Shown here one piece after another: positions 2,089-33,273 of a stretch of 34,626 bases of DNA. The stretch comes from Trueperaceae bacterium (lineage in GTDB: Bacteria; Deinococcota; Deinococci; Deinococcales; Trueperaceae). Under the pieces are notes generated by a model, which did no database searches, was not told the origin of the DNA, and was given only the letters and a program-made list of their open reading frames with translations. Each line of letters starts with the position of its first letter. Within the stretch, counting starts at the first letter, position 1. The DNA lies in the NCBI GenBank assembly GCA_007128755.1, contig SKWV01000455.1, positions 1 through 34,626 of the forward strand, in the 5' to 3' direction. Made by a program: the position numbers and the translations under genes.

Positions 2089-2124
2089 GTGACTCCTTCG
2101 GGAGGGCGACGGGATCGGTCGGCC

Positions 2125-3798: not shown

Positions 3799-3804
3799 GT
3801 GCCT

Positions 3805-4647: not shown

Positions 4648-4676
4648 GTGGGTGCTCCTTCTCGGGGTGTCTCGCG

Positions 4677-8493: not shown

Positions 8494-8583
8494 GCCTCTC
8501 CCTGTCGGCGCACGGGACCGAACCGGGCGCGGGTCGGGGTTGACGACACGAGACATGCAGTGCGTGCAGGAAGCTGCGCCAAG

Positions 8584-8601
8584 CTGTCGATTGTCGACAA
8601 T
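8584..8601 (-). promoter_or_regulatory. 18-bp GntR-type operator ATTGTCGACAATCGACAG (read on the minus strand), copy 1
   Basis: Exact reverse complement of 9520..9537, and the flanks diverge immediately. It contains the perfect 12-bp palindrome ATTGTCGACAAT, which fits the GT-Nx-AC core typical of GntR/FadR operators. It lies 12 nt downstream of the -10 of the promoter at 8614..8642. Confidence 0.7.
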
Positions 8602-8613
8602 CACCCGCCGAGC

Positions 8614-8642
8614 AGTATCGGCCGTCAGGAAGGCATTGTCAA
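8614..8642 (-). promoter_or_regulatory. Sigma-70/SigA-type promoter for the aminotransferase-led operon
   Basis: The minus strand reads TTGACA (8642..8637), a 17-nt spacer, then GATACT (8619..8614). It sits in the 253-bp gap between the gntR stop and ATG 8493. Confidence 0.55.
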
Positions 8643-8746
8643 GGTGACGAGGTCGTGAACGGTCTCCACCCGTATCGCCGCCGCGCTGGCGCGACCAGAT
8701 CGCGGTTCCCTCTTGGAGCCGCTCCACCAGTCGACGGCCGCGCGAC

Positions 8747-9472: not shown

Positions 9473-9484
9473 GCAGTTCCTTCC

Positions 9485-9513
9485 TTGACACATCCCGGTC
9501 GGGACCCTATCCT
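9485..9513 (+). promoter_or_regulatory. Sigma-70/SigA-type promoter for the plus-strand operon
   Basis: TTGACA (9485..9490), an exactly 17-nt spacer, then TATCCT (9508..9513). The operator starts 6 nt after the -10. Confidence 0.65.
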
Positions 9514-11069: not shown

Positions 11070-11187
11070 CCGTCCCATCGCAGGCACGAAGCATGGCCGC
11101 TCCCGGCCGTCGCACGCCCCCTCCCCCTTCGGCACCACCCGCTCGACACCGCATGCCGCTCCACGGCAGCGGTCCTCAGGAGGTTCC

Positions 11188-12744: not shown

Positions 12745-12758
12745 GCGTCTCGACCCCC

Positions 12759-16212: not shown

Positions 16213-16401
16213 GCGCGGTCGCCGGTCCCGCCGTCGATCGCCAGCGAGGCGAGGCGCCCGGAAGACGACCGGCTACCACGTCGCGCGGGCTCGGGGCGGA
16301 GGGCCGACGCGCATGCTGCACCGTGTGGCCCGCACGCTCGGACGTCGGGGCCGGCATGCGACGATGGGTGGCGTGCACGACGAGAGTGGAGGGTCACGAC
16401 G

Positions 16402-17634: not shown

Positions 17635-17687
17635 CGCCTGCCGGCGCCCCGGTGTGATTCCCCCGATCCCCCCGCCGAGGAGGCACC

Positions 17688-18743
17688 ATGCCGTACGGCC
17701 GTACGACCTCCGGACCCCACGCCGCGACGGAGCTCGTCGCGCTCTACGCACGGCAGCTCCGCGGCTGCGCGCTCCACGCCGATGAGACCTGCCTCATCGT
17801 CACCGACACCGCCTACGACCCCGTCGCCTCCGCCGCCTGCCTCGGCGCGGCGCTGCAGGTCGGCGCGCGCGCCTTCGTCCTCACCCTCCCCTACGACCGG
17901 CCCCTCCCCGGCGCGTCCCTGGCCGCGGCGATGGCCGACGCCGACCTGATCGTCGGCGTCACCACGCACCTCCTGCACTACGACCCACACGTGCGTGCCG
18001 CCTTGGACGGAGGAGCGCGCGCGCTCCTGGCGGTGCAGCCGACGCACGTCCTGCGTAGGCTCCCGTTCGACCCGGCGGTGATGGCGCGCACGAAGCTCGG
18101 AGCCGAGCGCCTCGCGCGGGCCCGCTCGGTGCGCATCACCTCGCCGGCCGGGACCGATCTCGTCATGGACGTCGCGGAGCGGCCCGCCCTCGCCCACTAC
18201 GGCGTCGCGGACGTCCCGGGCCACTTCGACTTCTGGGGCGGCGCCATGGTCGAGATCGCGCAGCACGAGGGGACGCTCGAGGGGACGCTGGTGCTCACGC
18301 GTGGCGACCAGGTCTTCCACCTCGGGCGCTACGTCGACGACGACGTGCGTATCACCTTCGAGGGAGGGCGCGCCGTGGCGATCGAGGGTGGGCTCGACGC
18401 CCTCCTCCTACGTCGCCACCTCGCCTCGTACGGCGACCCCAACGCCTTCCTGGGGGGCCACATCGCCTGGGGGACGGACCACCGGGCGCTCTGGACGGCG
18501 CCGCTCGTCCAGTTCCCGGAGGCGGGCGCCGGCAACGCCGACAGTGAGGGTGTGCTCGGCAGCGTGCAGGTCCAGCTCGGGTCGAACGACGACCAGTACT
18601 TCCGGGGACGGATCAGCAGCCGGGCGCACATCGGGCTCTGCACCCTCGGCAGCAGCCTCGCGCTCGACGGCGAGGTCGTGATCGACGCGGGCACGTTCGT
18701 GAGCTCGCTCGCCGCGTGCCAACCGGACGACGCCCCCGCCTGA
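17688..18743 (+). CDS. M29 aminopeptidase-like / NicX-like protein (function uncertain)
   Basis: 351 aa with GAGGAGG SD. The length and general pattern recall the aminopeptidase T/S (M29) fold and its approximately 350-aa NicX-type relatives. This assignment is from memory only. Confidence 0.55.
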   Translation: MPYGRTTSGPHAATELVALYARQLRGCALHADETCLIVTDTAYDPVASAACLGAALQVGARAFVLTLPYDRPLPGASLAAAMADADLIVGVTTHLLHYDPHVRAALDGGARALLAVQPTHVLRRLPFDPAVMARTKLGAERLARARSVRITSPAGTDLVMDVAERPALAHYGVADVPGHFDFWGGAMVEIAQHEGTLEGTLVLTRGDQVFHLGRYVDDDVRITFEGGRAVAIEGGLDALLLRRHLASYGDPNAFLGGHIAWGTDHRALWTAPLVQFPEAGAGNADSEGVLGSVQVQLGSNDDQYFRGRISSRAHIGLCTLGSSLALDGEVVIDAGTFVSSLAACQPDDAPA

Positions 18744-18812: not shown

Positions 18813-20498
18813 TCAGGCGGTCAGTTCGACGTCCTGCGCGTCGCGCCCGGCGCGTTCGGACAGGGCGCTCACCGTCACGCGGGCGCCCGCGGGGCCGCGC
18901 ACGAGCCACTCGACGATCTTCGTCGTCGGCGACCAGGTGGGCCCCCAGGGAGACCAGGGGAAGGGCCGCTCGTTGCGGCCCGCGAGGTGGCCGACGTCGA
19001 CCTCGCGCGGGTTCATCACCAGTTCGGCGTCGCCCGGCTCGAGCGCGACCCGCACCGTCTTGGCCACGCCGCGACCGATCGCCACGTCGGTCAGGTTGGT
19101 CGGCAGGTAGCCGTGGTTGGCCACGACGGCGCGCACGCGGTGCAGGTCGCTCCCGAGCGCCTCGGTCTCGACGCGCTCCACGCGCACGCGGGGCGCGGCC
19201 GCGGCGTGCTCGAGGTTGAAGAGCACGTTGTCGTGGCAGATCTTCTCGAGCAGCGCGGGCGGCGGGTTGCGGTAGGTCCAGATGTAGACCATGCCGCCGA
19301 TCTCGACGCTTCCGAGCTGTGGGTGGTCGAAGGCCTTCCAGGGGCGCACCCCGTGCTCCCCGAGGTGCTCCTGTACCCACTCGAACACCTTGAGCTGAGC
19401 CTCCTCGGTGCGCGGGTGGAGGTTGTAGTAGGCGGTCTTCTCGACCCCCGCCTCGGTCTCGACGTCCCAGACCTCGGTGGCGAAGGAGGGGATGCCCATC
19501 TTCTCGTAGGTCCAGTCCATCAGCCCGCCGCGCCGCGGCTTCGACTTGTCGGGGGTGAACTCCTCGTAGATCGAGATGGTCGGGTAGCCCGTGAGGGCGG
19601 TGCCGACCTTGCCGAGCGCCGTGTAGAGGCCGAGGTCCTTGGCCGACATGGCGCTGTCGGGGAGCGTCATCGACGGGCGCAGGATGATGCCGCCGTGCGT
19701 GTGGTACGCGTTCATGCCCGCGATGTTCGGGTGGTCGAGGATGAACCGCGCGATCGCGGCCGCCTCGGGCTCCGAGAGCGGCGCCTCGCCGGCTCCGTAC
19801 TCGTCGGCGTCCCAGTTGGCGGGGAAGTTGCGGTTGAGGTTCCCGTCGAAGGGCTTGTCGATGCGCACGTGCGCGCCGTCGAAGTCCTCGATGAAGCCCT
19901 CGGGGTAGAGGCGGTAGTACTCGCCGCCGTACTCGCCGGGCTCGCGCTGCACCATGATCCGCTCGTCGAGCGTACTCTTCTTCCACTCGCCGAGCGGGTC
20001 GCGCACGCGCATCGAGACGATGTAGCCGTCACCGTCGACGTCCTCGGTCTTGAGGCCGCCGAGGCGGTCCTGGCCGGGGGCGAAGCGGCCGTTGCCGCAC
20101 CAGAGGTAGTAGGGCGGCTTGAGCGAGGCCTCGGCGCCATCGGGGTTGATGCGCGGCACGATGTAGAACACCTGCTCGTCGACGAGGCGCGTGACGCTCT
20201 CGTCGCGGCCGTAGCCGCTCAGCAGGTGGTGGATGGCGTAGAGGGCCACGGCCGAGGTCGCGTGCTCCTCGGCGTGGATCTGCGCGTCGAGGTAGTAGCC
20301 GGGCTTGTGCTCACCCGGTCCGGTCGCGCGGTTGGTGATCTCCATGACCCAGACGTCGCGGTCGCCGAAGCTCTTCCCCAGGGAGCGCAGGGTGGCGAGC
20401 TCCGGATGGTCGGCTGCCAGGGCGTGGAGGCGCTCGGTCAGCTCGTCGTAGTCGTAGTAGCGATCGAAGCGGACGTCGGTGGGAGCGGCGACGCTCAC
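18813..20498 (-). CDS. M14 family zinc carboxypeptidase with extra C-terminal domain
   Basis: GTG 20498 overlaps the upstream stop as GTGA. The track start at 20951 lies inside the Ldh_2 gene. Motifs FDRYYDYDELT, HAEEHATS (HxxE), NRNFP and AYHTHGG. 561 aa. Confidence 0.8.
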   Translation of the reverse strand: MSVAAPTDVRFDRYYDYDELTERLHALAADHPELATLRSLGKSFGDRDVWVMEITNRATGPGEHKPGYYLDAQIHAEEHATSAVALYAIHHLLSGYGRDESVTRLVDEQVFYIVPRINPDGAEASLKPPYYLWCGNGRFAPGQDRLGGLKTEDVDGDGYIVSMRVRDPLGEWKKSTLDERIMVQREPGEYGGEYYRLYPEGFIEDFDGAHVRIDKPFDGNLNRNFPANWDADEYGAGEAPLSEPEAAAIARFILDHPNIAGMNAYHTHGGIILRPSMTLPDSAMSAKDLGLYTALGKVGTALTGYPTISIYEEFTPDKSKPRRGGLMDWTYEKMGIPSFATEVWDVETEAGVEKTAYYNLHPRTEEAQLKVFEWVQEHLGEHGVRPWKAFDHPQLGSVEIGGMVYIWTYRNPPPALLEKICHDNVLFNLEHAAAAPRVRVERVETEALGSDLHRVRAVVANHGYLPTNLTDVAIGRGVAKTVRVALEPGDAELVMNPREVDVGHLAGRNERPFPWSPWGPTWSPTTKIVEWLVRGPAGARVTVSALSERAGRDAQDVELTA

Positions 20499-21553
20499 GC
20501 GCGCCCCCCCGCACGCAGCGCGGACGCGTCGACGCCGAGGTCGGCGCCGAGGCGCACGAGGTCGTCGACCTCGCGCTGCGGCAGCGGCACGCCGTCGGTC
20601 CGCTTCGCACGTTCGCGTCGATGCTCGAGCTCGCCGGGGACGAGCACCTCGTCGAAGCCGGGCCGCAGCTCGCTCGCCTTGACCATGGCGATGAACGCCT
20701 GCATCCGCTCGTGGAAGGTATCGATCGGCATGAACCAGCCGACGTCGTACGCCACGAACGTGTGCGACACGTCGAGCTTCGCGGGGTCGCTGTAGGGCGT
20801 GGTCCCGAAGCCGCCCCCGGAGAGGACGCCCGTGAGCACGTCCGTGAAGAACGAGAGCCCGACGCCCTTGTACTGCCCGATGCCGAGCAGCGCGCCCGCC
20901 ATGGCCGCGGTCGGGTCGTCGGTCTCGTGACCGTCGGGCGTGAGCGCCCAATCGCGCGGCATGCTCTGCCCGCGGTCGGCGAGGAAGCGCATCATGCCCT
21001 TGCCGGCGGTCGTGAGGGCGATGTCGAGCACCACCGGGAAGTCACCGCCGGTGGGCGCGGCGATCCCCCAGGGGTTGGTGCCGACGACCGGCGTGCGGCC
21101 GCCCCAGGCGGCCATCTCGGGGCCCGCGTTCGTGAACGCGAGGCCGATGTGGCCGTGCGCGAGCGCGGCGCGCGCATGCACCGACGAGGAGCCGTAGTGG
21201 GTGCTGCCGCGCACGACGACGGTCCCGACGCCGCAGGCGGCGGCCTTCTCGCTCGCGAGGTCCATCGCGCGGCGGCCGATCACCGAGCCGAGGCCGTTGT
21301 GGGCGTCGACGAGCGCCAGCGCCGGGCTCTCCTTGACGATCTCGAACGGCGCGGCGAGGTTCACGCGGCCCTGCGCGATCCTGTCGCGGTAAGCCACGAG
21401 CCGGCGGATGCCCTGCCCCTGTCCGGGGTGGTAGCGCAGCTCGCTCTGCATGAGCGCGTCCGCGCAGATGCGCGCGTCACCGCTCGTGAGGCCCATCGCC
21501 TCGAAGCAGGCGACGCCGAAGCGCTCGAGCGCCTCCGCGTCGACCCGCGGCAT
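20495..21553 (-). CDS. Ldh_2 family (malate/L-lactate dehydrogenase 2 family) oxidoreductase: ureidoglycolate dehydrogenase / cyclic imine (pyrroline- or piperideine-2-carboxylate) reductase type
   Basis: The N-terminus MPRVDAEALERFGVACFEAMGL aligns by eye with E. coli AllD MKISRETLHQLIENKLCQAGL. Also TNPWGIAAP and GQYKGVGLSFF. ATG 21553 has a GAGG SD. An alternative start GTG 21598 would give a GTGA overlap with the upstream stop. Confidence 0.8.
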   Translation of the reverse strand: MPRVDAEALERFGVACFEAMGLTSGDARICADALMQSELRYHPGQGQGIRRLVAYRDRIAQGRVNLAAPFEIVKESPALALVDAHNGLGSVIGRRAMDLASEKAAACGVGTVVVRGSTHYGSSSVHARAALAHGHIGLAFTNAGPEMAAWGGRTPVVGTNPWGIAAPTGGDFPVVLDIALTTAGKGMMRFLADRGQSMPRDWALTPDGHETDDPTAAMAGALLGIGQYKGVGLSFFTDVLTGVLSGGGFGTTPYSDPAKLDVSHTFVAYDVGWFMPIDTFHERMQAFIAMVKASELRPGFDEVLVPGELEHRRERAKRTDGVPLPQREVDDLVRLGADLGVDASALRAGGRA

Positions 21554-21594
21554 GTCCGCCTCGGCGCCCATGCCCTGCGTGGGGAGGGCCGTCG

Positions 21595-22470
21595 TCACGC
21601 GACCACGTCGAACAGCGTCGACAGGTTGGTGCCGGGCGTGTGCACGGGCGCGAGGCCGCCGTCGTGCGAGGTCATGAGCAGGGTGAGTCCGGGCCCGTAG
21701 CCGGGGCGGGGGCTGTCGCCCTGGCCGACGACGCCGATGCCGACCGCGCCGCGGAAGTAGCCGTGGGAGTAGCGGCTGTCGAAGTCCTGCAGCGCCACGA
21801 GATCGCCGAGCCTGAGGTCGGTGAGGCCGGCTTCGGCCAGGGCGTCCTTGTCTACCGTCTGCACGTGCAGCGAGCCGCCGTCGCTCACCAGGCCCGCGCC
21901 GGCGCCGAGCAGGTGCGACGGGACCGTCGCGACGACCTTCACCTTGAGCTTGCCGCCTTCGTCGACGCCGTCGACGATCCGCTCGAGCAGCTCGGGCGCG
22001 CAGCCCTTGAGCTTGACGCTCGGGTGCTCGGGGATCTCGAGGCCGACGCCGGCGGCGCGGATGAGCACCTTGTCGCCGATCGCCATGTTCTCGCGGTCCG
22101 CCTTCGAGAAGTGCACGATCACGTGCTCCGAGAAGCGACCCGACTTGCCCGTCACCATGCCGCGGGCACCCTTGGCGGCGCCGGACATGACCTTCGCCTC
22201 GTTGCCGACGCACGCGAGGACGTTGAGGCCCTGGTTGGCGCCGGCGTCCTTGAGGTGGATGCTGACGCTCGGGTGGATGGTGTCGGCCAGCCAGCCGTAG
22301 GCGGAGTCGCCGATGGAGACGTTGTAGACGATGCTGCCGTGCGTCGGGTAGAGGAACGCCTTGCCGTCGGCGTCGAGGCGGTAGGGCTCGGCGGGGAGGC
22401 CGGGGAGGGTGGGGCTGGCGATGAGCCCCATGACGGAGACGTGGACGAGCTTGTCCTTGTTGGTGCGCAT
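21595..22470 (-). CDS. Uncharacterised protein, paralogue B of a tandem pair (possibly DUF4438-like)
   Basis: ATG 22470 shares 1 nt with the upstream stop (TGATG). 291 aa, MRTNKDKLVHV... It has clear blockwise similarity to 22470..23333. No catalytic motif that I recognise. Confidence 0.7.
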   Translation of the reverse strand: MRTNKDKLVHVSVMGLIASPTLPGLPAEPYRLDADGKAFLYPTHGSIVYNVSIGDSAYGWLADTIHPSVSIHLKDAGANQGLNVLACVGNEAKVMSGAAKGARGMVTGKSGRFSEHVIVHFSKADRENMAIGDKVLIRAAGVGLEIPEHPSVKLKGCAPELLERIVDGVDEGGKLKVKVVATVPSHLLGAGAGLVSDGGSLHVQTVDKDALAEAGLTDLRLGDLVALQDFDSRYSHGYFRGAVGIGVVGQGDSPRPGYGPGLTLLMTSHDGGLAPVHTPGTNLSTLFDVVA

Positions 22471-23333
22471 CAGAGGGTCTCCCGGATCTTCAGGTACCGA
22501 GCGATGTTGGCCTGCGGGTCGATGACCCACTCGATCTCGGCGTCGGTGGCGGCCATCAGGGTGAGGATGCCGGGGCCGTGCCCGGTCATGACCGAGTCCC
22601 CGTGGATGCACAGGGCGATGGCGACGTAGCCCTTGCGGTAGGAGCGGCCGAAGTGGTGGTCGGCGTGGTGGATGGCCACCACGTCGCCGAGGCGCAACGC
22701 GTCGATGCCGAGCTCCTGCATCAGACGGCGGTCACCGGAGGTGATGTCCTGGTCGACGTACTCGGCGTTCAGCTCGGCGCCCGAGGCCATCACGCGCACG
22801 GGCAGCTCCATCGCGACCGGCACGCGGAGCTTGCCCTCGGCGGTCGTCTCGAGGCCCATGGCGTGCAGCAGCCGGGGGCTCATCTTCTTGAGTTCGACGC
22901 CCGGGTGGTCGAGCAGTGCCAGGCCCCGCCCGAAGGCGCGGATCTGGATGGTGTCCTCGACGCAGAGCTGCTCGTGGACCTCGGGATCGAAGTCGACGAG
23001 GATGCGCGCGTGCTCGCCGATCACGACGCCCTCGGCGCCGGCCGCCTCGCCGCTCGTCACCACGGCGCGGTTGCCCATGCACGTGAGGTAGTGGAGCGCG
23101 TGGTGGATGCCGCCGTCGTCGTGGTCGATCGACGCGCCGGGCTCGACGTGGTCGCCCTGCCAGCCGAAGGCGGGGTCGCCGACGCGGACGTTGTAGACGT
23201 AGCCGAACATGCCGGGACGGACGACGGAGAGCCCGTCGTTGTCGGGGATGAACGGCCCGCGCCGGAACGCGGGTGCGCTGATGGAGCCGGCGATGGCGAG
23301 CTCGACGAGTCGATCTTCGTTGGTCCTGATCAC
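22470..23333 (-). CDS. Uncharacterised protein, paralogue A of a tandem pair (possibly DUF4438-like)
   Basis: GTG 23333 with GAGAGG SD. 287 aa, MIRTNEDRLVEL... Shared blocks with paralogue B are YVYNVRVGDPAFGW / IVYNVSIGDSAYGW, LTCMGNRAVVTSGEAAGAEG / LACVGNEAKVMSGAAKGARG, LRLGDVVAI / LRLGDLVAL and GHGPGILTLMA / GYGPGLTLLMT. Confidence 0.7.
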   Translation of the reverse strand: MIRTNEDRLVELAIAGSISAPAFRRGPFIPDNDGLSVVRPGMFGYVYNVRVGDPAFGWQGDHVEPGASIDHDDGGIHHALHYLTCMGNRAVVTSGEAAGAEGVVIGEHARILVDFDPEVHEQLCVEDTIQIRAFGRGLALLDHPGVELKKMSPRLLHAMGLETTAEGKLRVPVAMELPVRVMASGAELNAEYVDQDITSGDRRLMQELGIDALRLGDVVAIHHADHHFGRSYRKGYVAIALCIHGDSVMTGHGPGILTLMAATDAEIEWVIDPQANIARYLKIRETL

Positions 23334-23367
23334 GTCTGCACCTCTCGGATGTCGATGGTCGTCGTCT

Positions 23368-24543
23368 TCACGCGCGCGCCGCGGCTTCCGCGGCGTAGCG
23401 CTTCACGACCGGGGTCATGCGCTCGACGGCCTCGCGCAGCACGTCGGTGGGCTGCAGGGTCGTGATGCGGAGGTAGTCGCTCCAGCGTTCGCCGAACCCG
23501 GTGCCGGGGAACACGAGCACCCGCGCCTCCTTGAGCAGGAGGTAAGAGAGCTCGAGCGAACGGAGGCCGGTCGAGGAGCTCTTCGCCCAGAAGAAGAAAC
23601 CGCCGCGCGGGTCCGTGTACTCCAGGCCCATGTCGGTGAGGCCCTTGGCGAGCAGGTCTCGGCGCTCTCCGTAGATCACCTTGAAGTCCTCGATGCAGGC
23701 GTCGTCGGCCTCGGCGGCCGCCAGCGCGGCGGCCTGGCTGACGTTGGCGACCGGGCCGGTGGTGGCCCCCTTGATGGCCGTCATGCCGAGGATCGCGTTC
23801 TGCTCCGCGATGACGTACCCGACGCGCCATCCCGTCATCGCCCACGCCTTGGAGAAGCCCGAGAGCGTGATGGTGTGGCGCTCCATGCCCGGGAGCGACC
23901 CGATCGAGACGTGCTCGTGTGGGGGCCAGACGAACTTGCCGTAGATCTCGTCGGAGATCACCACGAAGTCGTGCTTCTTGGCGAGCGCGGCGATCTTCTC
24001 CGCCTGCTCGCGCGAGATGATCCCGCCCGTCGGGTTCGAGGGGGTCACGAGGAGCAGCGCCTTGGTCTTGGGCGTGATGAGCGACTCGATCGCCTCGGCG
24101 CGCAGATCGAACGCGTCCTCGGGGTGCGTCGGCACGGTGACGCTGACGCCCCCGGCGTGCTCGATCGCCTGATCGTAGCTGGTGTAGCGCGGGTCGGGGA
24201 CGAGGATCTCGTCACCCGGGTCGAGGAGCGCGGACATCACCAGGAAGAGCCCCTCCTGGCCGCCGGTCGTCACGAGCACCTGCTCCGCGCCGACGTCGAG
24301 GCCGTGATCCGTGCGGGCGCGCTTCGCGATGGCGGCGCGCAGCGCCGGCATCCCCGCCACGGGCTGCAGGGGCTGCACGCCCTGCGCGAGCGCCTGCTTG
24401 GCCGCGACCACCACGTGATCGGGCGTGGCGAGGTCGGGATCCCCCCGACCGAGCGCGATGGCGTCGGGGATCGTCTTGGCGAGGTCCATCAGCGCGTAGC
24501 GCAACTTGGCGCCGTCGAGGTTGCGAAGTTCGTCGAGGGTCAC
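23368..24543 (-). CDS. Class I/II PLP aminotransferase
   Basis: GTG 24543 (GGAGGAG SD) overlaps the upstream stop as GTGA. 391 aa with TPSNPTGG, SDEIYGKF and SGFSKAWAMTGWRVGY (PLP lysine present). Confidence 0.85.
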   Translation of the reverse strand: MTLDELRNLDGAKLRYALMDLAKTIPDAIALGRGDPDLATPDHVVVAAKQALAQGVQPLQPVAGMPALRAAIAKRARTDHGLDVGAEQVLVTTGGQEGLFLVMSALLDPGDEILVPDPRYTSYDQAIEHAGGVSVTVPTHPEDAFDLRAEAIESLITPKTKALLLVTPSNPTGGIISREQAEKIAALAKKHDFVVISDEIYGKFVWPPHEHVSIGSLPGMERHTITLSGFSKAWAMTGWRVGYVIAEQNAILGMTAIKGATTGPVANVSQAAALAAAEADDACIEDFKVIYGERRDLLAKGLTDMGLEYTDPRGGFFFWAKSSSTGLRSLELSYLLLKEARVLVFPGTGFGERWSDYLRITTLQPTDVLREAVERMTPVVKRYAAEAAARA

Positions 24544-25262
24544 GCGTGCTCCTCCATGAGCGCCAGCGCGCCCCATTGCGAGAGGTTGGTGGTGCAGAGC
24601 GTGAGCGACTGCTTGAAGTCGCGCAACGGTCCGGCGGTGGCGGCGGGCGCCGCGAGGTAGCCGACGCGCCACGCCTCGAGGCCCTGGCCTGCGCCGATGC
24701 CGCCGACCGTCACGGTCGCGTCGGCGAGGCCGGCGGAGGCGGGGTGGAAGCCGCTCTCCTCGGCGGCCTCGAAGACGACGGCCCAACCCTCGTCGGCCGC
24801 GCGCGCCAGCCAGGGATCGCGCGTCTCGGCGGGCGTGTCGGAGGTGAGGTAGACGAGCGCGGGGCCGTGGGCGTCGGCATCGGGCCCGACGAGGCGCACG
24901 TCGCGCACGATGCAGGCCGCGGCGACGCGCTCCGGGTGCGAGAGCGCGACGACGGTGCCCGAGCCCGCAGGGACGAGCTGCTGGATCGCGACGAAGCGGG
25001 CCTCGACGACGCCGCAGGTGATCACGACGCCCTTGCCGGCGTCGACCTCGACACCGTGACGGGTCCGCAGGGCGTCGGCCACCGCTTGCCGCAGTGGGAG
25101 GATCCCGGGGCGGTCGGTGTAGTGCGTCTCACCGCGGTCGAGTGCCGCGATCGACGCATCGCGCGCCGAGGCCGGCACGGTGGCCTCGGCTCCGGCGGCA
25201 CCGTCGCCGGCCAAGCCCTGCAGGAGCGCGACGCGTGCGGCGAGCGGTACGGCGAGCGCCAT
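24540..25262 (-). CDS. Truncated, lysine-less aminotransferase homologue (probable pseudoenzyme or accessory subunit)
   Basis: ATG 25262 (AGGGGA SD) shares 1 nt with the upstream stop (TGATG). 240 aa. It aligns with the N-terminal two thirds of class-I aminotransferases (HYTDRPGILPLRQAVADAL...VVITCG). The NPTG box is degenerate (SDTPAET). The S-x-S-K box reads GGIGAGQGLEAWRVGYL with no Lys. The C-terminal small domain is missing. Confidence 0.7.
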   Translation of the reverse strand: MALAVPLAARVALLQGLAGDGAAGAEATVPASARDASIAALDRGETHYTDRPGILPLRQAVADALRTRHGVEVDAGKGVVITCGVVEARFVAIQQLVPAGSGTVVALSHPERVAAACIVRDVRLVGPDADAHGPALVYLTSDTPAETRDPWLARAADEGWAVVFEAAEESGFHPASAGLADATVTVGGIGAGQGLEAWRVGYLAAPAATAGPLRDFKQSLTLCTTNLSQWGALALMEEHA

Positions 25263-25732
25263 CAGATCCCCTGCACGGCGTACTGGGCGAGCTGTTCGGG
25301 CGTGTAGACCTGCATGAACTCGATCTCGATGCCGCCGACGTCGTCCTCGAGGAACGCGACCCAACCCTCGGGGTGCACGTGGCTCCCGGTGATCTTGCAG
25401 GCCGAGCACTCCTTCAGCTTGGCCCCGCGCGCCTGCGCGGTCTCGAGGGCCGCATCGATGTCGTCGACGGCGTAGCAGATGTGGTGGAGCCCTTCGCCGC
25501 CGCGGTCGGCGATCCAGGCGGCGAACCGACCGTCGGGATCCATCGACTGGGAGATCTGGTACTCGATGCCGCCCAAGTCGAAGATCGCGACGCGGTTGCG
25601 CGACTTCGCGAACTCCGTGACGGTGACCTCCTCCGGGACTCCGAGCAGGCGCTTGTAGTTCGCCAGCGTGGTGTCGACGTCGTGGACGGCGAACGACATG
25701 TGCTTGACCTGCGTGACGTGGATGTCCTTCAT
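25262..25732 (-). CDS. VOC (glyoxalase / bleomycin-resistance / methylmalonyl-CoA-epimerase-like) family protein
   Basis: ATG 25732 with AAAGGAA SD, 156 aa. The pattern VKHMSFAVHDVD...GLHHICYAVDDIDAALE...GIEIEF is a typical paired beta-alpha-beta-beta-beta VOC pattern. The track start at 25978 is over-extended. Confidence 0.75.
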   Translation of the reverse strand: MKDIHVTQVKHMSFAVHDVDTTLANYKRLLGVPEEVTVTEFAKSRNRVAIFDLGGIEYQISQSMDPDGRFAAWIADRGGEGLHHICYAVDDIDAALETAQARGAKLKECSACKITGSHVHPEGWVAFLEDDVGGIEIEFMQVYTPEQLAQYAVQGI

Positions 25733-25931
25733 GATGGTTCCTTTCCCCTCGGGTGAGGGCACCCTCACGAGCGAGGGTGGTGGGATGCCTTGGAGAGACA
25801 CGCGGCTGCGTGATGGATCGTCGAGACTCGTGCTCGCACTCTCAGAGAACCACGTGCTCGAGGGGCCTGTCGGGGCCGGCGCGGAGTCGGGGGAGAACGC
25901 TTGGGGACGATGGTTCCAGATCGACGGCTCC

Positions 25932-26831
25932 TCAGACCTGACCGCGGAGGCGTGGGTCGAGCGCGTCGCGGAGTCCATCGCCGATGAGGTTGACCGCGAG
26001 GACCGTCACCATGATGGCGAGGCCCGGGAACGTGGCCACCCACCAGGAGCGCCGGAGCACGCCGCGGCCGTCGCTGATGAGCAGTCCCCACTCCGGCGTG
26101 GGGGGCGCCGCGCCGAGCCCGAGGAACGAGAGGGCAGCCACGGACAGCACCGCGCTGCCGAGCCCCAGCGTCGCGAGCACCAGCACGGGAGCGAAGACGT
26201 TGGGGAGGATGTGCCGGCCCATCACGGCGCCGTCGCCGGCCCCGGCCGCACGAGCCGCCTCGACGTACGGCAGCTGCTTGGCCGAGAGCACCGAGGCACG
26301 AACCACCCGCGCGTACTGCGGCATGGTCGAGAAACCGACCGCGATCATCACGTTCACGAGGCTGGGCCCGAGCGCGAAGACGATGGTGATGGCGAGCAGG
26401 ATGCCCGGCATCGCCAAGACGAAGTCCATGAACCGCATCAGGGCGTTGTCGATCACGCCGCCATAGAACCCGGAGATCAGGCCGAACACCGTGCCCAGGA
26501 TGGAGCCGATGGCGACGGCGACGACCCCGACCAGGAGCGAGATGCGGCCGCCGTAGACGACCCGCGTGAAGATGTCGCGCCCGTTCCGATCGGTGCCGAA
26601 CCAGTGCTCGGCGGTCGGCGGCGAGAAGCGTGCGGCGTAGTTCGGCTCGACCGGATCGAAGCGCGTGACGTACGGCGCGAAGATGACCAGGAGGATCAGG
26701 ATGGCGAAGAGCACGGTTCCGACCACGGCTCCGCGGTTGCGGCGGAACTCGCGCAGGAAGATCTGGGTGGGCGTACGCTCGTGCCCGATGGTTCGGTGTG
26801 CCGCGGGGGCGGCGGAGGCGGCTTCAGCCAT
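25932..26831 (-). CDS. ABC transporter permease (DppC/OppC type)
   Basis: 299 aa with multiple hydrophobic spans. WFGTDRNGRDIFTRVVYG (OppC N-terminal motif) and an EAA-like loop (AARAAGAGDGAVMGRHILPN). Confidence 0.85.
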   Translation of the reverse strand: MAEAASAAPAAHRTIGHERTPTQIFLREFRRNRGAVVGTVLFAILILLVIFAPYVTRFDPVEPNYAARFSPPTAEHWFGTDRNGRDIFTRVVYGGRISLLVGVVAVAIGSILGTVFGLISGFYGGVIDNALMRFMDFVLAMPGILLAITIVFALGPSLVNVMIAVGFSTMPQYARVVRASVLSAKQLPYVEAARAAGAGDGAVMGRHILPNVFAPVLVLATLGLGSAVLSVAALSFLGLGAAPPTPEWGLLISDGRGVLRRSWWVATFPGLAIMVTVLAVNLIGDGLRDALDPRLRGQV

Positions 26832-26864
26832 GCTGTCTCCGGTCGGAGCCGATGGAGGCGCCGT

Positions 26865-27788
26865 TCATGCGTAGCTGATTCGAGGATCGAGGATCCCGTA
26901 GGTGAGATCGACGATCAGGTTGACGAGGACGAACAGGGCCGCGGTCACGATGATGCCGCCCTGTACGAGGTAGAAGTCGTGGGCGAAGATCGCCTTGATG
27001 ATCAGGTTGCCGATCCCCTGGCGCGCGAACACGATCTCGATGATCACCGAGCCTCCGAGCAGGAAGCCGAAGTTGATGCCGATGACGGTCACGATGGGGA
27101 TGAGCGCGTTCTTGAGCGCGTGCCGGTTGATCACGCTGGGCTCGGCGACACCCTTGGCCCGGGCGGTCCGAACGAAGTCCTGCCCCAGGACCTCGAGCAT
27201 GGTCGACCGGAAGAGCCGCGCGAGCAGACCGGCGAACGACAGCCCGAGGGCGAAGGCCGGAAGGACGACGTGCCATAGGGTGTCGGAGCCCTGGACGGGG
27301 AACCAGCCGAGGTTGAGGGAGAACACGAAGATAAAGATCAGGCCGAGCCAGAAGTTGGGCATCGACAGGGCCAGCAGTGAGATGAGCATGCTGATGCTGT
27401 CCCACCAGGTGTTGCGCATGACCGCCGCGGTGATCCCGAAGAACGCTCCGAAGAGGACGCCCACGATGGTCGCGGCCACCGCGAGCTCGAGGGTCTTGGG
27501 GAGCTGTTCGAAGATCTGCGGCAGCACCGGTCGCCGGCTGAAGAGCGAGGTGCCGAAGTCACCCTGCACCGCGTTGGCCAGGAAGCGCCCGTACTGGACG
27601 AGGATGGGATCGGTCAGCCCCAGCTGCTCCCGCAGCTGCTGCTCCTCGACCGCCGAGGCGCCGAACTCCGAGAGCATGATGGTGACGGCGTCCCCGGGCA
27701 GCAGGTGGAGCATGAAGAAGACCAGGCTGCTGACGCCGAACACGACCACCACGGCGGCGAGCGTGCGGTTGACGACGTACCCGATCAT
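26865..27788 (-). CDS. ABC transporter permease (DppB/OppB type)
   Basis: 307 aa. The N-terminus MIGYVVNRTLAAVVVVFGVSSLVFFMLHLLPGD and the segment FVRTARAKGVAEPSVINRHALKNA are typical of OppB/DppB permeases. Confidence 0.85.
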   Translation of the reverse strand: MIGYVVNRTLAAVVVVFGVSSLVFFMLHLLPGDAVTIMLSEFGASAVEEQQLREQLGLTDPILVQYGRFLANAVQGDFGTSLFSRRPVLPQIFEQLPKTLELAVAATIVGVLFGAFFGITAAVMRNTWWDSISMLISLLALSMPNFWLGLIFIFVFSLNLGWFPVQGSDTLWHVVLPAFALGLSFAGLLARLFRSTMLEVLGQDFVRTARAKGVAEPSVINRHALKNALIPIVTVIGINFGFLLGGSVIIEIVFARQGIGNLIIKAIFAHDFYLVQGGIIVTAALFVLVNLIVDLTYGILDPRISYA

Positions 27789-27844
27789 GACGTGAGCTTC
27801 AGGGACATGATTGGCTCTCTACGCGGCCACGGTTGGTGGGAGAT

Positions 27845-27871
27845 CGAGCGGGGGCCGATGGCCCCCGCTCG
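27845..27871 (-). promoter_or_regulatory. Intercistronic perfect 12-bp GC-rich stem with 3-nt loop (mRNA-stabilising hairpin or partial terminator candidate)
   Basis: CGAGCGGGGGCC-GAT-GGCCCCCGCTCG. Every position from 27845 to 27856 pairs with 27871 to 27860. It lies in the 103-nt gap between the SBP stop (27892) and the permease start (27788). No U-tract follows on the transcribed strand. Confidence 0.55.
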
Positions 27872-27891
27872 CGTGGAGTCGAAGCGTCCGA

Positions 27892-29493
27892 TCAGTCGTG
27901 CTCGTGCAGGTTCAACAGGTAGCCGAACCAGCCGGTCGCGTCCGAAGGGGTCCAGCCGTCGACGCCCTGGCGGGCCGCGACGAGGATCTTGACGTTGTAG
28001 AGCGGCACGATGGTCGCGTCGCCCATCAGGATGTGCTGGAGCTCGGAGAAGAGCTCGGCACGGACGTCCTGGTCGGTCTCGGCGCGGGCCTCCGCGAAGA
28101 TCTCGGTGACGCGCTCGTTGCAGTAGTGGGCGAAGTTCCAGCCCCCACCGATGTTCTCGCACCCGTAGCGACCCTGCAGCGCCGAGGGATCCACGCCGCC
28201 CCACTGGCTCCACACGACGTTGTGCAGCCCCTGCTGGGCGGTGCCCTGCTGGGCGGGGTTGTCCTGGACCAGCACGTTGGTATGGATGCCGACGCGGCGC
28301 CACTCGGCCTCGAGGACCTCGGCCTGGTTGGCTACGCCGCTCAGGGTGAGGTACTCGATCGACAGGCGCTCGCCGTTGCGCTCGCGGAACCCGGTCGACG
28401 CGTTGAGGGTCCAGCCGGCCTCATCGAGCAGTTCACCGGCGCGCTCGGGATCGAACGGGTACATCTCGCCCGCCTCGGGGTCGTAGCCGAAGGAGAAGCG
28501 GGACATCACGCCGCCCGAGGCGTCGTAGATACCCTCGAACACGATGTCGCGCACGAGTTCCGAGTCGGTCGCGTGGATGAGTGCGCGGCGCACGAGCACG
28601 TCGTCCGTGGGCGACTTCGTCACGTTGATGAAGAGGCCCGCGGGCGGGTAGCCGAGGCGGTCGTAGCCGTGGGTCTCGAAGTTCGCGTCGGCCTCGAAGT
28701 CGAGCCAGTCGAAGGCGTCGAGGTAGAGGGCCATGCCGATCTCGCCACGCTCGAGCGCGGCGGCGCGGGTGGCGTCCTCCTCGATGAAGCGGAAGGTGAT
28801 GGTGTCGAAGTAGGGCGCGGTCCGGGCCTGGAAGTCGGCGGCCCAGGCATAGTCGGGGTTCTTCTCCACGACGACCGACTGGCCGGGCGTGTAGGAGACG
28901 AAGCGGTACGGGCCGGTGCCCACGGGGTTCCAGCTGATCTCGTCGCCGAGGCGTTCGACGGCGGTCGGCGACATCATGCCCATGCCGTAGGTCGACAGGG
29001 CGCTCGGGAGCAGGCCGTAGGGCGAGGTGAACTCGAGCTCGAGGGTGTGCGAACCGACGGCGCGCGCGGCGGTGAACGGCCCGATCTCGAAGCGGGCGTA
29101 CTGGGACTCGGTAGCCGGGTCGACCATGCGCTCGAAGTTGAACGCGGCGGCCTCGGCGTCGAACGGCGTGCCGTCGTGGAACACGACGTCGTCGCGCAGC
29201 TCGAAGGTCCACACCAGGCCGTCGTCGGAGACGGACCAGGAGGTGGCGAGGTTCGGGTAGAGCTCACCGGTGTTGCCGTCGCGCTGGATCAGGTTGTCGA
29301 AGATCCCGAAGAACAGCGGTGCGTCGAAGGCGGCGGAGGACTTGTGCGGATCGAGGACCGTGAACTCCAGTCTGGATCCGATCGTGAGCGAGCTCTGTGC
29401 CTGCGCGACGCTGAGTGTGAGCGCGAGCGTCGACAGGAGCATGACGGCGGCCATGAGAACTGGCCACCTCAGGCGGTGCGGGGTCGTGGTCAT
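27892..29493 (-). CDS. ABC transporter substrate-binding protein, family 5 (peptide/nickel/opine type)
   Basis: ATG 29493 with GGAAGGAG SD. The track start at 29652 runs into the gntR gene. Signal peptide MTTTPHRLRWPVLMAAVMLLSTLALTLSVAQAQ. 533 aa, with the family-5 SBP pattern (YRFVSYTPGQSVVVEKNPDYW). Confidence 0.85.
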   Translation of the reverse strand: MTTTPHRLRWPVLMAAVMLLSTLALTLSVAQAQSSLTIGSRLEFTVLDPHKSSAAFDAPLFFGIFDNLIQRDGNTGELYPNLATSWSVSDDGLVWTFELRDDVVFHDGTPFDAEAAAFNFERMVDPATESQYARFEIGPFTAARAVGSHTLELEFTSPYGLLPSALSTYGMGMMSPTAVERLGDEISWNPVGTGPYRFVSYTPGQSVVVEKNPDYAWAADFQARTAPYFDTITFRFIEEDATRAAALERGEIGMALYLDAFDWLDFEADANFETHGYDRLGYPPAGLFINVTKSPTDDVLVRRALIHATDSELVRDIVFEGIYDASGGVMSRFSFGYDPEAGEMYPFDPERAGELLDEAGWTLNASTGFRERNGERLSIEYLTLSGVANQAEVLEAEWRRVGIHTNVLVQDNPAQQGTAQQGLHNVVWSQWGGVDPSALQGRYGCENIGGGWNFAHYCNERVTEIFAEARAETDQDVRAELFSELQHILMGDATIVPLYNVKILVAARQGVDGWTPSDATGWFGYLLNLHEHD

Positions 29494-29648
29494 GAACGTG
29501 CTCCTTCCTTCTCGGACGAGGGATGGCGGGCGGGTCTGGCCCACCGAACAGCTTGGGCGACGGGCCCGCGCCTCGGCGCTGCGACGCAGCGTGAGGACGC
29601 GCTCGAGGGGCGTGGGCGACGCCGTTCGTGCTTCGGGTGCGAGACCCG

Positions 29649-30383
29649 TCACGAGGACGACGCCGTGGTGGGCGGCGCAGGCTCGTCATCGCCGATCGAG
29701 GAGACGACGACGAGCGTGTCGAGGTGAGCGATGACGTTCTCGATGTGACGGCATGCGGCGCGTTCGGCGGCGTCGGCATCGCGCGCCACGAGCGCCTCGT
29801 AGATCCTGCGGTGCTCACCAGCCACGTCGGCCGCCGTCCGAGGCGCGGGGCCGTCGGAGCCGGTGCGCAACTGACGGATGGTGCTGTGACGGTAGACCGC
29901 GACGATGTCCGCGGCGATCTGCGCGAAGCGGACCAGGTGGTGGTTGTCGCTCATCTCGTAGATGCGGGCATGGAAGCTCAGGTCGGCGACCCAGAGTGCC
30001 TGAGTCTGATCGACCGATTCGCCGTCTCCGCCGTCCCACACCGCTAGGTCGTCGGCGAGCGCCTCGAGATCGCGCACGGTGGCGTGCTCGGCTGCGAGAC
30101 GCGTCGCCAGCCCGTCGAACGCAGCCCGGCAGCGATAGAGGTCGCGCACGTCCTTGATCGCCAGCCGGGGTACGGCGAGTCGTCCCTGCCGCCCTTCGAC
30201 GAGGCCACGCTCCTTGAGCATGATGAGCGCGTTGCTGACCGGTGTGCGGCTGACGGCGAGCTGGGTCGCCAGCTCGGACTCGTTGATGATCTGCCCAGGC
30301 CGATAGAAGCCGCCGACGATGCGGTCGCGTACGAAGGCGTACACCTGATCTCCGAGACTGGGTCCTCGTGCGACGACGGTCAT
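29649..30383 (-). CDS. GntR-family transcriptional regulator, FadR-like (second copy in the window)
   Basis: ATG 30383 with GAAAGG SD, 244 aa. HTH segment ESELATQLAVSRTPVSNALIMLKERGLVE, followed by a helical effector domain. Confidence 0.8.
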   Translation of the reverse strand: MTVVARGPSLGDQVYAFVRDRIVGGFYRPGQIINESELATQLAVSRTPVSNALIMLKERGLVEGRQGRLAVPRLAIKDVRDLYRCRAAFDGLATRLAAEHATVRDLEALADDLAVWDGGDGESVDQTQALWVADLSFHARIYEMSDNHHLVRFAQIAADIVAVYRHSTIRQLRTGSDGPAPRTAADVAGEHRRIYEALVARDADAAERAACRHIENVIAHLDTLVVVSSIGDDEPAPPTTASSS

Positions 30384-30519
30384 TGGCACCTTTCCGCTCC
30401 TCCGGCATGCGGCACGCTGCATGCAGGTGCCGTTGCTCGGCAGTGTACGGAGCACGCTGGCGCCCACCGAGTCGTTCCCGGCGCCGGAGTACACAGGGGC
30501 TCTCGGCGTGCCGCGCGCC

Positions 30520-30921
30520 TCACGTGCGACGGCGATACGCGACCACCTCGACCTCGACTCGGACCTCCGGACCACCGAGCGCGGCGACGACGATCCCCGT
30601 GTGCGGCGGGCGGTGGTCGCCGAAGAAGCTGAGCCGTTCGGCCGTCACCGCCGCGCCATCGGCACCGTCGACCAGGTAGGTGGTCACCTTCACCACGTGC
30701 TCGGGCGAGAGGCCGGCCGCCTCCAGGACCCGGGCGAGGTTGGTGTACACCTGGCGCGCTTGCCCGGCCGCGTCACCCGGCGCCACCAGTGCCCCCGTGG
30801 CGTCGCGCGCGACCTGCCCCGCGACGTACAACGTCTCCCCCGCCCACATCGCGTGGTCGTAGGTCGCCGGTGCGTAGATGCCGTCGGGACGGATCGCCCC
30901 CCGCGCGTCGTCGTCGTGCAC
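30520..30921 (-). CDS. RidA/YjgF/UK114 family protein (enamine/imine deaminase family)
   Basis: 133 aa. The pattern YDHAMWAGETLYVAGQVA...QARQVYTNLARVLEAAGLSPEHVVKVTTYL...VEVEVVA is the canonical Rid-family pattern. GTG start. Confidence 0.8.
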   Translation of the reverse strand: MHDDDARGAIRPDGIYAPATYDHAMWAGETLYVAGQVARDATGALVAPGDAAGQARQVYTNLARVLEAAGLSPEHVVKVTTYLVDGADGAAVTAERLSFFGDHRPPHTGIVVAALGGPEVRVEVEVVAYRRRT

Positions 30922-30959
30922 GTCGTGCCTGCTCTCTCGGCCCGCCGTTCAGGCCGCAA

Positions 30960-33244: not shown

Positions 33245-33273
33245 CGCGGCGTCCGCCTAGGGATCGAGACCCC

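Follow-up and report, generated by a model that had tools for sequence, protein, structure and literature searches.

A cross-phylum gene cluster from Trueperaceae combining a DUF4438 pair, a variant Ldh_2 and an aminotransferase with a truncated paralogue

Several described catabolic systems combine enzymes of the kind considered here. The cysteate/sulfolactate pathway uses an aminotransferase, the sulfolactate dehydrogenase ComC, and the two-subunit lyase SuyAB. In hydroxyproline loci, a 3-hydroxyproline dehydratase, which is either proline-racemase-like or the two-subunit AcnX, is paired with an Ldh_2-type pyrroline-2-carboxylate reductase (DpkA/LhpD). Murein tripeptide recycling relies on the MppA-Opp importer, the M14 amidase MpaA, YcjG, and PepD. 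Uncharacterised catabolic clusters are also common in genomes. Here, we describe a set of ten minus-strand genes at positions 18813-29493 of a 34,626-nucleotide contig from a Trueperaceae bacterium (SKWV01000455.1, assembly GCA_007128755.1); the whole contig is referred to below as the window. What is new in this set is a probable catabolic operon with an uncharacterised core, which consists of a pair of DUF4438 proteins, a variant Ldh_2 enzyme, and an aminotransferase partnered by a pseudoenzyme.

Gene content and conservation of the cluster

The window has a G+C content of about 70%, and its nearest relatives are metagenome-assembled genomes (MAGs) of Trueperaceae (Deinococcota). One of them, MGR_bin147 (locus L005), carries the same genes at 83-99% protein identity. 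The ten open reading frames (ORFs) were found exactly where an earlier, sequence-only reading of the window had placed them, and each domain call made in that reading was borne out by Pfam. In the direction of transcription, the genes encode an SBP_5 substrate-binding protein (SBP, 27892-29493, 533 aa); a DppB/OppB-type permease (26865-27788, BPD_transp_1 and BPD_transp_1_N); a DppC/OppC-type permease (25932-26831, OppC_N and BPD_transp_1); a VOC protein (25262-25732, 156 aa, PF13669); a truncated aminotransferase (tAT, 24540-25262, 240 aa); a full-length aminotransferase (AT, 23368-24543, 391 aa, Aminotran_1_2); two DUF4438 proteins, DufA (22470-23333, 287 aa) and DufB (21595-22470, 291 aa), each with PF14505 and PF20999; an Ldh_2 oxidoreductase (20495-21598, PF02615); and an M14 peptidase (18813-20498, 561 aa, Peptidase_M14). 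The start of the Ldh_2 gene is ambiguous, at either GTG 21598 or ATG 21553.

A gene order confined to this strain had been named as an outcome that would refute the earlier reading; the order instead recurs far beyond it. DufA has more than 4000 relatives at E <1e-10 among 90%-identity clusters, and a pattern scan with one genome per species returned at least 599 matching stretches, 567 of which were confirmed as relatives. All window proteins, and accessory proteins drawn from annotated loci, were mapped onto the best 80 loci, which come from Trueperaceae, Chloroflexota (Anaerolineae, Aggregatilineales), Alphaproteobacteria (Rhodobacteraceae, Microvirga, Methylobacterium), Acidobacteriaceae, and one cyanobacterial MAG. 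Unless another sample is named, counts given as fractions of 53 refer to the loci with full 10-kb flanks, which span four or five phyla. DufA was found in 53/53 loci, DufB in 52/53, Ldh_2 in 48/53, and an aminotransferase in 46/53. DufB adjoins DufA in 47 of 52 loci, and Ldh_2 lies at most three genes from DufA, likewise in 47 of 52. Two GFO/IDH/MocA oxidoreductases recur at similar frequency (type b, 45/53; type a, 43/53), as do an NAD-dependent epimerase-family protein, the VOC protein, the hydantoinase-like amidohydrolase AH2 (window 5879-7348), and a protein designated u501 (window 9645-11069), each present in 43/53. Less frequent are permeases (35-38/53), a second binding protein, SBP2 (window 11188-12744, 35/53), M24 (31/53), the truncated aminotransferase (28/53), M32 (22/53), and M14 (20/53). 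The last two are mostly alternative to each other: Chloroflexota and Trueperaceae have M14, and Alphaproteobacteria and Acidobacteriaceae have M32. Such non-orthologous replacement argues for a required carboxypeptidase step.

Specific orthologues, not merely families, recur across phyla in a shared order with identities of 55-77%, and the Pfam-annotated contexts in Rhodophyticola, Aggregatilineales, Microvirga, and a Chloroflexia MAG agree. The full set, with M14, M32, RidA, GntR, and ABC ATPases, is present in cultured strains of Rhizobium straminoryzae and Pelagibacterium lentulum. Minimal clusters, for example in Microvirga, are reduced to DufAB and Ldh_2 with an importer, one GFO enzyme, an SDR, and an M20 dipeptidase-like enzyme. 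Accessory content differs between lineages. The recurrence of the order in Trueperaceae, Chloroflexota, Alphaproteobacteria, and Acidobacteriaceae indicates that the genes form one functional unit, and the cluster has probably spread horizontally across several phyla. No homologue of DufA was found in a plasmid collection. In the window, members of this supercluster occupy three operons: 1-9493 and 18813-34506 on the minus strand and 9645-18743 on the plus strand. All ten genes of the unit proposed from the sequence are present, but the conserved unit is larger.

Stop/start overlaps had been taken as the sign that the ten genes work together. The overlaps TGATG at 25260-25264, GTGA at 24540-24543, TGATG at 22468-22472, and GTGA at 20495-20498, all on the minus strand, are correct in sequence and position, and the optional GTGA at 21595-21598 is likewise present. 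Close packing is limited to the seven enzyme genes, which are separated by -1, -4, +34, -1, -4, and -4 nt; the importer genes lie 33-199 nt apart, and the spacer that separates VOC from the second permease gene measures 199 nt. The co-directional run reaches upstream to 34506 and comprises 15 genes, so that a single transcript of just these ten is no more than a possibility. Moreover, 4-nt overlaps occur elsewhere in the window, between AH1 and AH2 (5879-5882), AH2 and AT2 (7345-7348), and permeases B2 and C2 (32186-32189), all on the minus strand. In a window of 70% G+C, overlaps alone are therefore unremarkable, and translational coupling is a general trait of the operons of this genome that is not peculiar to 18813-29493. 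What exceeds chance is the cross-phylum synteny, not the overlaps. An Rfam scan of the window returned no riboswitch or other RNA family, promoter and terminator scans returned nothing above the shuffled expectation, and no motif in the 199-nt spacer 5' of the VOC gene is conserved among the Trueperaceae relatives.

The suggestion that the system is undescribed also stands. Profile searches map the set to no characterised pathway, with every NCBIfam equivalog match below its cut-off, and literature searches on combinations of Ldh_2, aminotransferase, hydantoinase, carboxypeptidase, and GntR returned no description of the cluster.

Predicted active sites of the core enzymes

Both proteins that had been left without assigned function belong to DUF4438, the TM1086 family, and are 35% identical to each other in alignment. 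The Pfam scores for PF14505/PF20999 are 154.6/142.8 bits for DufA and 166.2/116.8 bits for DufB (gathering cut-offs 24.9/27). DufA matches TM1086 of Thermotoga maritima (PDB 3dcl, 3n99) over residues 2-281 with a phmmer E of 1.3e-58, and its AlphaFold2 model (pLDDT 72) matches the same structure in Foldseek with E 5e-27 and a TM-score of 0.73. In a Foldseek search of the PDB with this model, TM1086 was the sole match; it was followed, at E >0.04, by entries for small beta-barrels (L35Ae, KOW, F1 N-terminal domain). Since only TM1086 and generic small beta-barrels were matched, the fold gives no functional analogy. A search of the literature for DUF4438, PF14505, PF20999, and TM1086 returned no functional account in indexed papers, and TM1086 appears only in a crystallisation-methods paper. 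A single literature match for PF14505 was discarded because it is a mislabelled CAP_assoc_N domain.

Residue conservation distinguishes the two paralogues. H62, E64, H108, S184, D194, D196, H244, and H252 are common to DufA and the single-copy TM1086-type proteins, and all eight are replaced in DufB (by C, H, S, A, S, H, Q, and Y). The replacements are themselves conserved: at seven of eight positions the majority residue is found in at least 90% of the B sequences, and at the H62 position 75% have Cys. A further set of residues is conserved across DufA, DufB, and the single-copy group. With genes that overlap by 1 nt, DufA looks like the catalytic subunit, probably metal-binding, and DufB like a specialised, diverged partner. 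The TM1086 crystals contain 5 chains in one form and 30 chains in another (3dcl, 3n99), which hints at a large, pentamer-based assembly; if DufA and DufB form an assembly of this kind, the A/B stoichiometry becomes an interesting question.

The full-length aminotransferase is a class I enzyme of the aspartate aminotransferase (AspAT) I-gamma type (Aminotran_1_2, 241.9 bits), and its nearest solved structures are the Pyrococcus horikoshii aromatic aminotransferase (ArAT) and Thermus thermophilus AspAT (E ~1e-82 to 1e-76). It has the Schiff-base Lys and the equivalents of N175, D203, Y206, R242, and R361. In class-I aminotransferases, one Tyr reaches the active site of the partner subunit. This cross-subunit residue (Tyr64*/Tyr70*), which is Tyr64 in T. 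thermophilus AspAT numbering, the alignment column having been set independently by PDB alignments and by other aminotransferases, is Leu in the window protein. Tyr64* is absent from 33/33 full-length ATs encoded directly downstream of a tAT and is kept in 48/56 ATs without a tAT neighbour. Of the eight exceptions, six fall in the AT lineage that is linked to tAT (Trueperaceae, Chloroflexota, cyanobacterial MAG), and several of these six have a tAT in the same locus or lie too near a contig end for adjacency to be scored.

The truncated paralogue shows the reverse pattern. As had been claimed from the sequence, it is catalytically dead: in the window protein, Ala takes the place of the Lys that binds pyridoxal phosphate (PLP), and there is no C-terminal domain. 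A Lys occurs at this position in 0/40 orthologues, and N175, Y206, and the C-terminal Arg are missing from 40/40. The protein is shorter by ~150 residues, which includes a shortened large domain. Tyr64* is retained in 40/40, and of the active-site set only Tyr64* and R242 are kept. The tAT and AT genes overlap by 4 nt, and the tAT start overlaps the VOC stop. We considered whether tAT is a pseudogene and rejected this, because it recurs in 40 loci from different phyla, evolves under purifying selection (dN/dS 0.21-0.50), and retains the complementary residue. The simplest reading of the complementary losses in AT and tAT is an obligate heterodimer with one composite active site, in which tAT would be non-catalytic. 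Together with the asymmetric conservation of DufA and DufB, these losses strengthen the earlier view that the coupled genes encode functional partners. The best NCBIfam match of AT, the cyclodehydratase GntC, was rejected as a function (312 against a cut-off of 415, barely above generic aminotransferase models).

Ldh_2 matches PF02615 with 339.5 bits over profile positions 1-332 of 333. The family S-H-G motif, which is found in every solved relative, is replaced by PGQGQG in 70/70 cluster-linked orthologues, that is, by a His-to-Gln change and a two-residue insertion; other family-conserved residues are retained. On motif grounds, the PGQGQG enzymes are assigned to a distinct subfamily. In NCBIfam, ComC is the best match (198.5 bits against a cut-off of 500), and the protein also falls below the equivalog cut-offs of PRK10098 (161 against 336), AllD (138-145 against 356-496), and DlgD (116 against 316).

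The fixed association of DufA, DufB, and Ldh_2 fits the logic of a dehydratase with its reductase, and a pathway for proline- or hydroxyproline-rich peptides could be built on it. DufA-DufB would then be a new two-subunit dehydratase that yields a cyclic imine (pyrroline- or piperideine-2-carboxylate), and Ldh_2 would reduce this to proline or pipecolate. Peptidase families with proline specificity are over-represented: the amidohydrolases AH1 and AH3, whose nearest model is Xaa-Pro dipeptidase, a PepQ-like M24 in 31/53 loci, and a gene of the S9 prolyl-oligopeptidase family (12759-14705) are in keeping with such a pathway, as are RidA and GntR/FCD, which are typical of such loci. We nevertheless regard it as improbable. 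By E-value, Ldh_2 lies much nearer to the archaeal malate/sulfolactate dehydrogenases (1e-57 to 1e-49) than to DpkA (1e-23), and no Pfam families of proline-racemase-like or AcnX dehydratases, or of D-hydroxyproline dehydrogenase, were found in the window or in six annotated loci. The S9 gene accompanies the cluster in 0/53 loci, and AT/tAT, VOC, AH2, the glycoside-hydrolase-like protein, and the sugar oxidoreductases would be left without a role.

The VOC protein is of the Glyoxalase_4 / methylmalonyl-CoA-epimerase-like type (PF13669, 61 bits; TIGR03081, methylmalonyl-CoA epimerase, 62.7 bits against a cut-off of 114.95). H11, Q59, H84, E136, and E138 are invariant in 60 orthologues, and the four metal ligands are intact. 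An extra insertion, C109-x-x-C112...H118-x-H120, is also invariant in the 60 orthologues and looks like a second metal site, perhaps for zinc, which is unusual for a Glyoxalase_4 protein. The M14 protein (137.5 bits) has an insertion of ~100 residues and a C-terminal extension, and it has no signal peptide. H75/E78, N222-R223-N224, H266/H268, and E342 are invariant in 22 orthologues, and the protein is predicted to be a cytoplasmic, carboxypeptidase-T-like metallocarboxypeptidase.

These results also bear on the view that no single pathway exists and that the locus is a peptide-scavenging island of unrelated, accumulated hydrolase and amino-acid genes, with DUF4438 in a non-enzymatic role (scaffold, cage, or regulator). 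At least ten peptidase or amidase genes and two importers in the window, the lineage-dependent accessory content, a DUF4438 fold that resembles no enzyme, and the large oligomer hinted at by the TM1086 crystals would all suit such an island. The invariant His/Asp/Glu set of DufA, on the other hand, resembles a metal site, and an island of unrelated genes would account neither for the Ldh_2 subfamily motif nor for the two observations by which this view is disfavoured, the synteny of specific orthologues across phyla and the complementary residue losses in AT and tAT. We give it little credence.

Transport, regulation and clues to the substrate

The operon's binding protein (27892-29493; SBP_bac_5, 282 bits) has an N-terminal signal-like segment, and its nearest solved structures are GsiB/YliB, NikA, and DppA. 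Comparison of the binding proteins with solved structures gave loose pointers to GsiB, NikA, DppA, and AccA, from which no ligand emerges. Between the SBP stop and the permease start lies a GC-rich hairpin (GAGCGGGGGCC-ATC-GGCCCCCGCTC, ~27795-27890, minus strand). Stem-loops of this kind in ABC operons often raise the ratio of binding-protein to permease expression.

Upstream of the SBP gene, a GntR/FCD regulator (29649-30383; Pfam GntR and FCD) and a RidA/YjgF-family imine/enamine deaminase (30520-30921; Ribonuc_L-PSP, 90 bits) lie where they had been placed. Further upstream are permeases C2 (30960-32189) and B2 (32186-33244) and the amidohydrolase AH3 (33274-34506), whose nearest model is a Caulobacter-type Xaa-Pro dipeptidase; the last three were assigned by Pfam, and all five genes are on the minus strand. 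The window thus holds two Dpp/Opp-type permease pairs and two family-5 binding proteins. The description of an importer and a dedicated GntR regulator is right as to presence and position, but the operon's SBP type and GntR type each occur in 0/53 other loci and are lineage-specific. The types conserved with the cluster are the second pair in the window, SBP2 (11188-12744, plus strand; SBP_bac_5, 50-64% identity in other loci) and the GntR gene at 8747-9493. In the Trueperaceae relative L009, AH3, B2, and C2 run directly into RidA-VOC-tAT-AT-DufA-DufB-Ldh2. Because RidA there directly precedes VOC, the GntR-SBP-permease block is a lineage-specific insertion or deletion. RidA is also found in the Rhizobium cluster (L088). 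Compared with L005, GntR and RidA are 83% and 89% identical, neighbouring genes 93-99%, and DufA 98-99%, so that the regulatory block either evolves faster or was exchanged.

The conserved genes outside the ten-gene set offer clues to the substrate. The u501 protein (9645-11069, plus strand, 474 aa) is a glycoside-hydrolase-like TIM barrel with no Pfam or NCBIfam assignment (GHL10 only at E 0.002). Its sequences from Trueperaceae, Alphaproteobacteria, and Acidobacteriaceae share 64-77% identity, and the top Foldseek matches of its AlphaFold2 model (pLDDT 84) are Cwp19 (GHL10) and PgaB GH153, so that u501 is probably a new member of a glycoside-hydrolase-like family. Cwp19 is a peptidoglycan lytic transglycosylase (PMC6016235). 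A CE4 deacetylase gene lies at 1-861, and CE4 is found in 18 of 21 alphaproteobacterial loci. Together, u501, the CE4 deacetylase, the two GFO/IDH/MocA enzymes, and the epimerase point to a sugar or amino-sugar moiety. Next to the CE4 gene is an ORF of 408 aa (862-2088, minus strand) with a strong coding signal (0.91 G+C at third codon positions), no family match beyond a faint one to DUF885 at E 0.007, and 69% identity in L009.

Such a moiety would be expected if the cluster recycled or catabolised peptidoglycan fragments (muropeptides), a more specific version of the catabolic model presented below. Stem peptides or muropeptides would enter through the Opp-type importer, u501 and CE4 would handle the amino sugars, M14 or M32 would trim D-Ala, D-Glu, and diaminopimelate (DAP), and AT, DufAB, and Ldh_2 would dispose of the carbon of meso-diaminopimelate or D-glutamate. 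The importer-plus-M14 logic is the same as in the MppA-Opp/MpaA murein tripeptide pathway. Besides u501 and CE4, the window contains an M55 D-aminopeptidase. An M20 enzyme (M20_388) reaches the ArgE/DapE subfamily cut-off, matches of AT include DapC/DapL-type and N-succinyl-DAP aminotransferases, and 13 of 21 alphaproteobacterial loci have a DapA-like dihydrodipicolinate synthase. Of three single-copy DUF4438 genes, two adjoin cell-wall enzymes, one an S11 DD-carboxypeptidase and the other M23 and MurJ. We still consider this version unlikely: neither the window nor any of the six annotated loci has the Pfam families of NagZ, AmpD, AnmK, MurQ, LdcA, MpaA, or YcjG, there being analogues at family level only (M14, M20, CE4, and a glycoside-hydrolase-like protein), the likeness of u501 to Cwp19 is structural only (TM-score ~0.5-0.6, 14% identity), and the hydantoinase-like AH2 would have no role. 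The window also has an M32 and an amidase-signature enzyme; neither the M55 enzyme nor the amidase is conserved with the cluster (0/53 for each).

AH2 (5879-7348, minus strand) is a cyclic amidohydrolase of the allantoinase/hydantoinase/dihydroorotase type, with NCBIfam scores of 316 bits for allantoinase and 312 bits for D-hydantoinase, both below the cut-off. An M20 enzyme (16402-17634) does reach the cut-off of the hydantoinase/carbamoylase family (349 against 204 bits). Nitrogen scavenging from ureides or hydantoins could be drawn from these two, with AH2 opening a cyclic ureide or N-carbamoyl conjugate, followed by decarbamoylation, AT, an AllD-like Ldh_2, and an AllA-like lyase. A PF04115 ureidoglycolate-lyase-like gene in 20 of 21 alphaproteobacterial loci would fit such a scheme, AllD is itself an Ldh_2 enzyme, and the CE4 family includes the allantoinase PuuE. 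The scheme seems very doubtful to us, since every allantoin-pathway equivalog is below cut-off (AllD, 138 against 496 bits), the carbamoylase-type M20 accompanies the cluster in 0/53 loci, and the carboxypeptidases, peptide-type importer, and sugar enzymes are unexplained by it.

Between the M20 gene and the M14 gene, a NicX-like protein of 351 aa is encoded on the plus strand (17688-18743). It has no Pfam match and was recognised through PDB 7cn3 (E 2e-32), the structure of NicX, a 2,5-dihydroxypyridine dioxygenase with an M29-aminopeptidase-like fold. The NicX-like protein recurs only in Trueperaceae relatives; in two of them (L006, L007), its gene directly follows Ldh_2, in the place that M14 takes here.

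A catabolic model and its relation to known systems

On balance, we favour as probable a model in which the cluster is a GntR-controlled, substrate-inducible catabolic unit for a small imported peptide-like or glycopeptide-like conjugate. Gene content, conservation, and intact or missing catalytic residues are as observed above; in building the model, we infer the order of steps, the hetero-oligomers, the direction of flux, and the substrate. The content is catabolic in that the window has binding-protein-dependent importers, GntR/FCD regulators, RidA, and many hydrolases, and no ligase, synthetase, or exporter; a biosynthetic cluster was rejected for the same reasons. The conjugate, which probably carries a non-proteinogenic residue, would be imported through a family-5 binding protein and two Dpp/Opp-type permeases powered by ATPases encoded elsewhere, and would be degraded in the cytoplasm, with expression controlled by the GntR/FCD regulator. 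The M14 carboxypeptidase would trim the compound and free the unusual amino acid; in other lineages M32 would take this role, aided by M24, M20, and amidohydrolase-type hydrolases. The AT/tAT heterodimer would convert the amino acid to a 2-oxo acid, with AT giving the PLP lysine and the substrate-binding residues and tAT supplying only the cross-subunit Tyr, so that each dimer would have one active site. RidA may clear reactive imine or enamine by-products. The DufA-DufB hetero-oligomer would catalyse the pathway-specific step, which may be a hydration/dehydration, an isomerisation, or the cleavage of a C-X bond. The PGQGQG Ldh_2 would interconvert a 2-oxo acid (or cyclic imine) and a 2-hydroxy acid (or cyclic amine) with NAD(P)H, and the VOC metalloenzyme may be an epimerase or isomerase that sets stereochemistry.

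Several observations weigh against this model. No component reaches an NCBIfam equivalog cut-off. The DUF4438 fold as modelled, built of small beta-barrels, resembles no known enzyme and could be non-catalytic, and the single-copy TM1086-type genes of Thermotoga, Caloranaerobacter, and Zhenhengia have no conserved metabolic context, being found in housekeeping or cell-envelope settings. Transamination is an assumption, because the AT family includes beta- and gamma-lyases. AT and VOC are absent from minimal clusters such as that of Microvirga and may therefore be a side branch and not part of the core. The sugar oxidoreductases found with the cluster elsewhere are absent from the window, and no Walker A or LSGGQ motif of an ABC ATPase occurs in any frame of the 34.6-kb sequence; ATPase genes do sit within the cluster in Microvirga, Rhizobium, and Pelagibacterium.

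More tentatively, DufA-DufB may be the first member of a new class of enzymes with the TM1086 fold, a heteromeric metalloenzyme in which one subunit is catalytic and the other rewritten. Together with the His-to-Gln Ldh_2 and the aminotransferase heterodimer with one active site, it would then catalyse key steps of a new cross-phylum pathway for an abundant environmental compound derived from peptides or glycopeptides, for example from cell walls. This larger proposal is possible, though we would not call it probable. If it is true, it would provide the first function for DUF4438, a family with >4000-7000 clusters at 90% identity and a structure solved since 2008; it would define a new Ldh_2 subfamily; and AT/tAT would be, as far as is known, the first bacterial class-I aminotransferase that is an obligate heterodimer with a pseudoenzyme partner. 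Carriers number in the hundreds of species, from soil, wastewater, and the sea, among them Chloroflexota, Rhodobacteraceae, Trueperaceae, and Acidobacteriaceae, and such wide environmental occurrence suggests that the substrate is probably an abundant, overlooked component of dissolved organic nitrogen. With further cultured carriers (Microvirga arvi, M. antarctica, Limimaricola pyoseonensis, Pseudooceanicola antarcticus), the pathway is directly testable.

Each described system shares part of this arrangement. The cysteate/sulfolactate pathway joins an aminotransferase of the AspAT type to an Ldh_2-family dehydrogenase and a lyase encoded by two genes, and ComC is the best NCBIfam match of the Ldh_2 here; however, the ComC score is 198 against 500 bits, DufAB and SuyAB are unrelated, the SHG motif differs, and no sulfite-handling genes were seen. 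In hydroxyproline loci, lyase genes are fixed beside an Ldh_2 reductase together with a GntR regulator and a peptide/amino-acid importer, but DufAB is unrelated to either dehydratase family, and the Ldh_2 described here is far from DpkA. In murein tripeptide recycling, too, an unusual peptide is imported with a family-5 binding protein and processed by M20 peptidases and a cytoplasmic M14 enzyme. It differs in that neither a YcjG-type epimerase nor other recycling genes were seen here, the M14 enzyme here is carboxypeptidase-T-like with a large insertion, and the DufAB/Ldh_2/AT/VOC core has no counterpart there. The likeness to allantoin degradation (AllB/PuuE, AllC, AllD, AllA) is at the level of families, namely a cyclic amidohydrolase, an M20 "hydantase" amidase, an Ldh_2 enzyme, a PF04115 lyase-like protein, and CE4, but all equivalog scores here are below cut-offs, and the known pathway includes no carboxypeptidases, peptide importer, aminotransferases, DUF4438 proteins, or sugar oxidoreductases.

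At the level of single components, TM1086 shares with DufA both DUF4438 domains, a full-length match, and the His/Asp/Glu residues; it is encoded by a single-copy gene, whereas here there is a duplicated A/B pair, the site is rewritten in B, and Ldh_2 is always linked. The closest parallel to AT/tAT is serine palmitoyltransferase, in which the PLP enzyme LCB1/LCB2 includes a lysine-less partner (PMC6148460). Both are fold-type-I PLP enzymes with a lysine-less partner subunit and one active site per heterodimer, which for AT/tAT is a prediction. Serine palmitoyltransferase is, in contrast, a eukaryotic, membrane-bound enzyme of the alpha-oxoamine synthase subfamily, whereas in the present pair truncation of the partner is accompanied by a reciprocal loss of the cross-subunit Tyr from the catalytic subunit.

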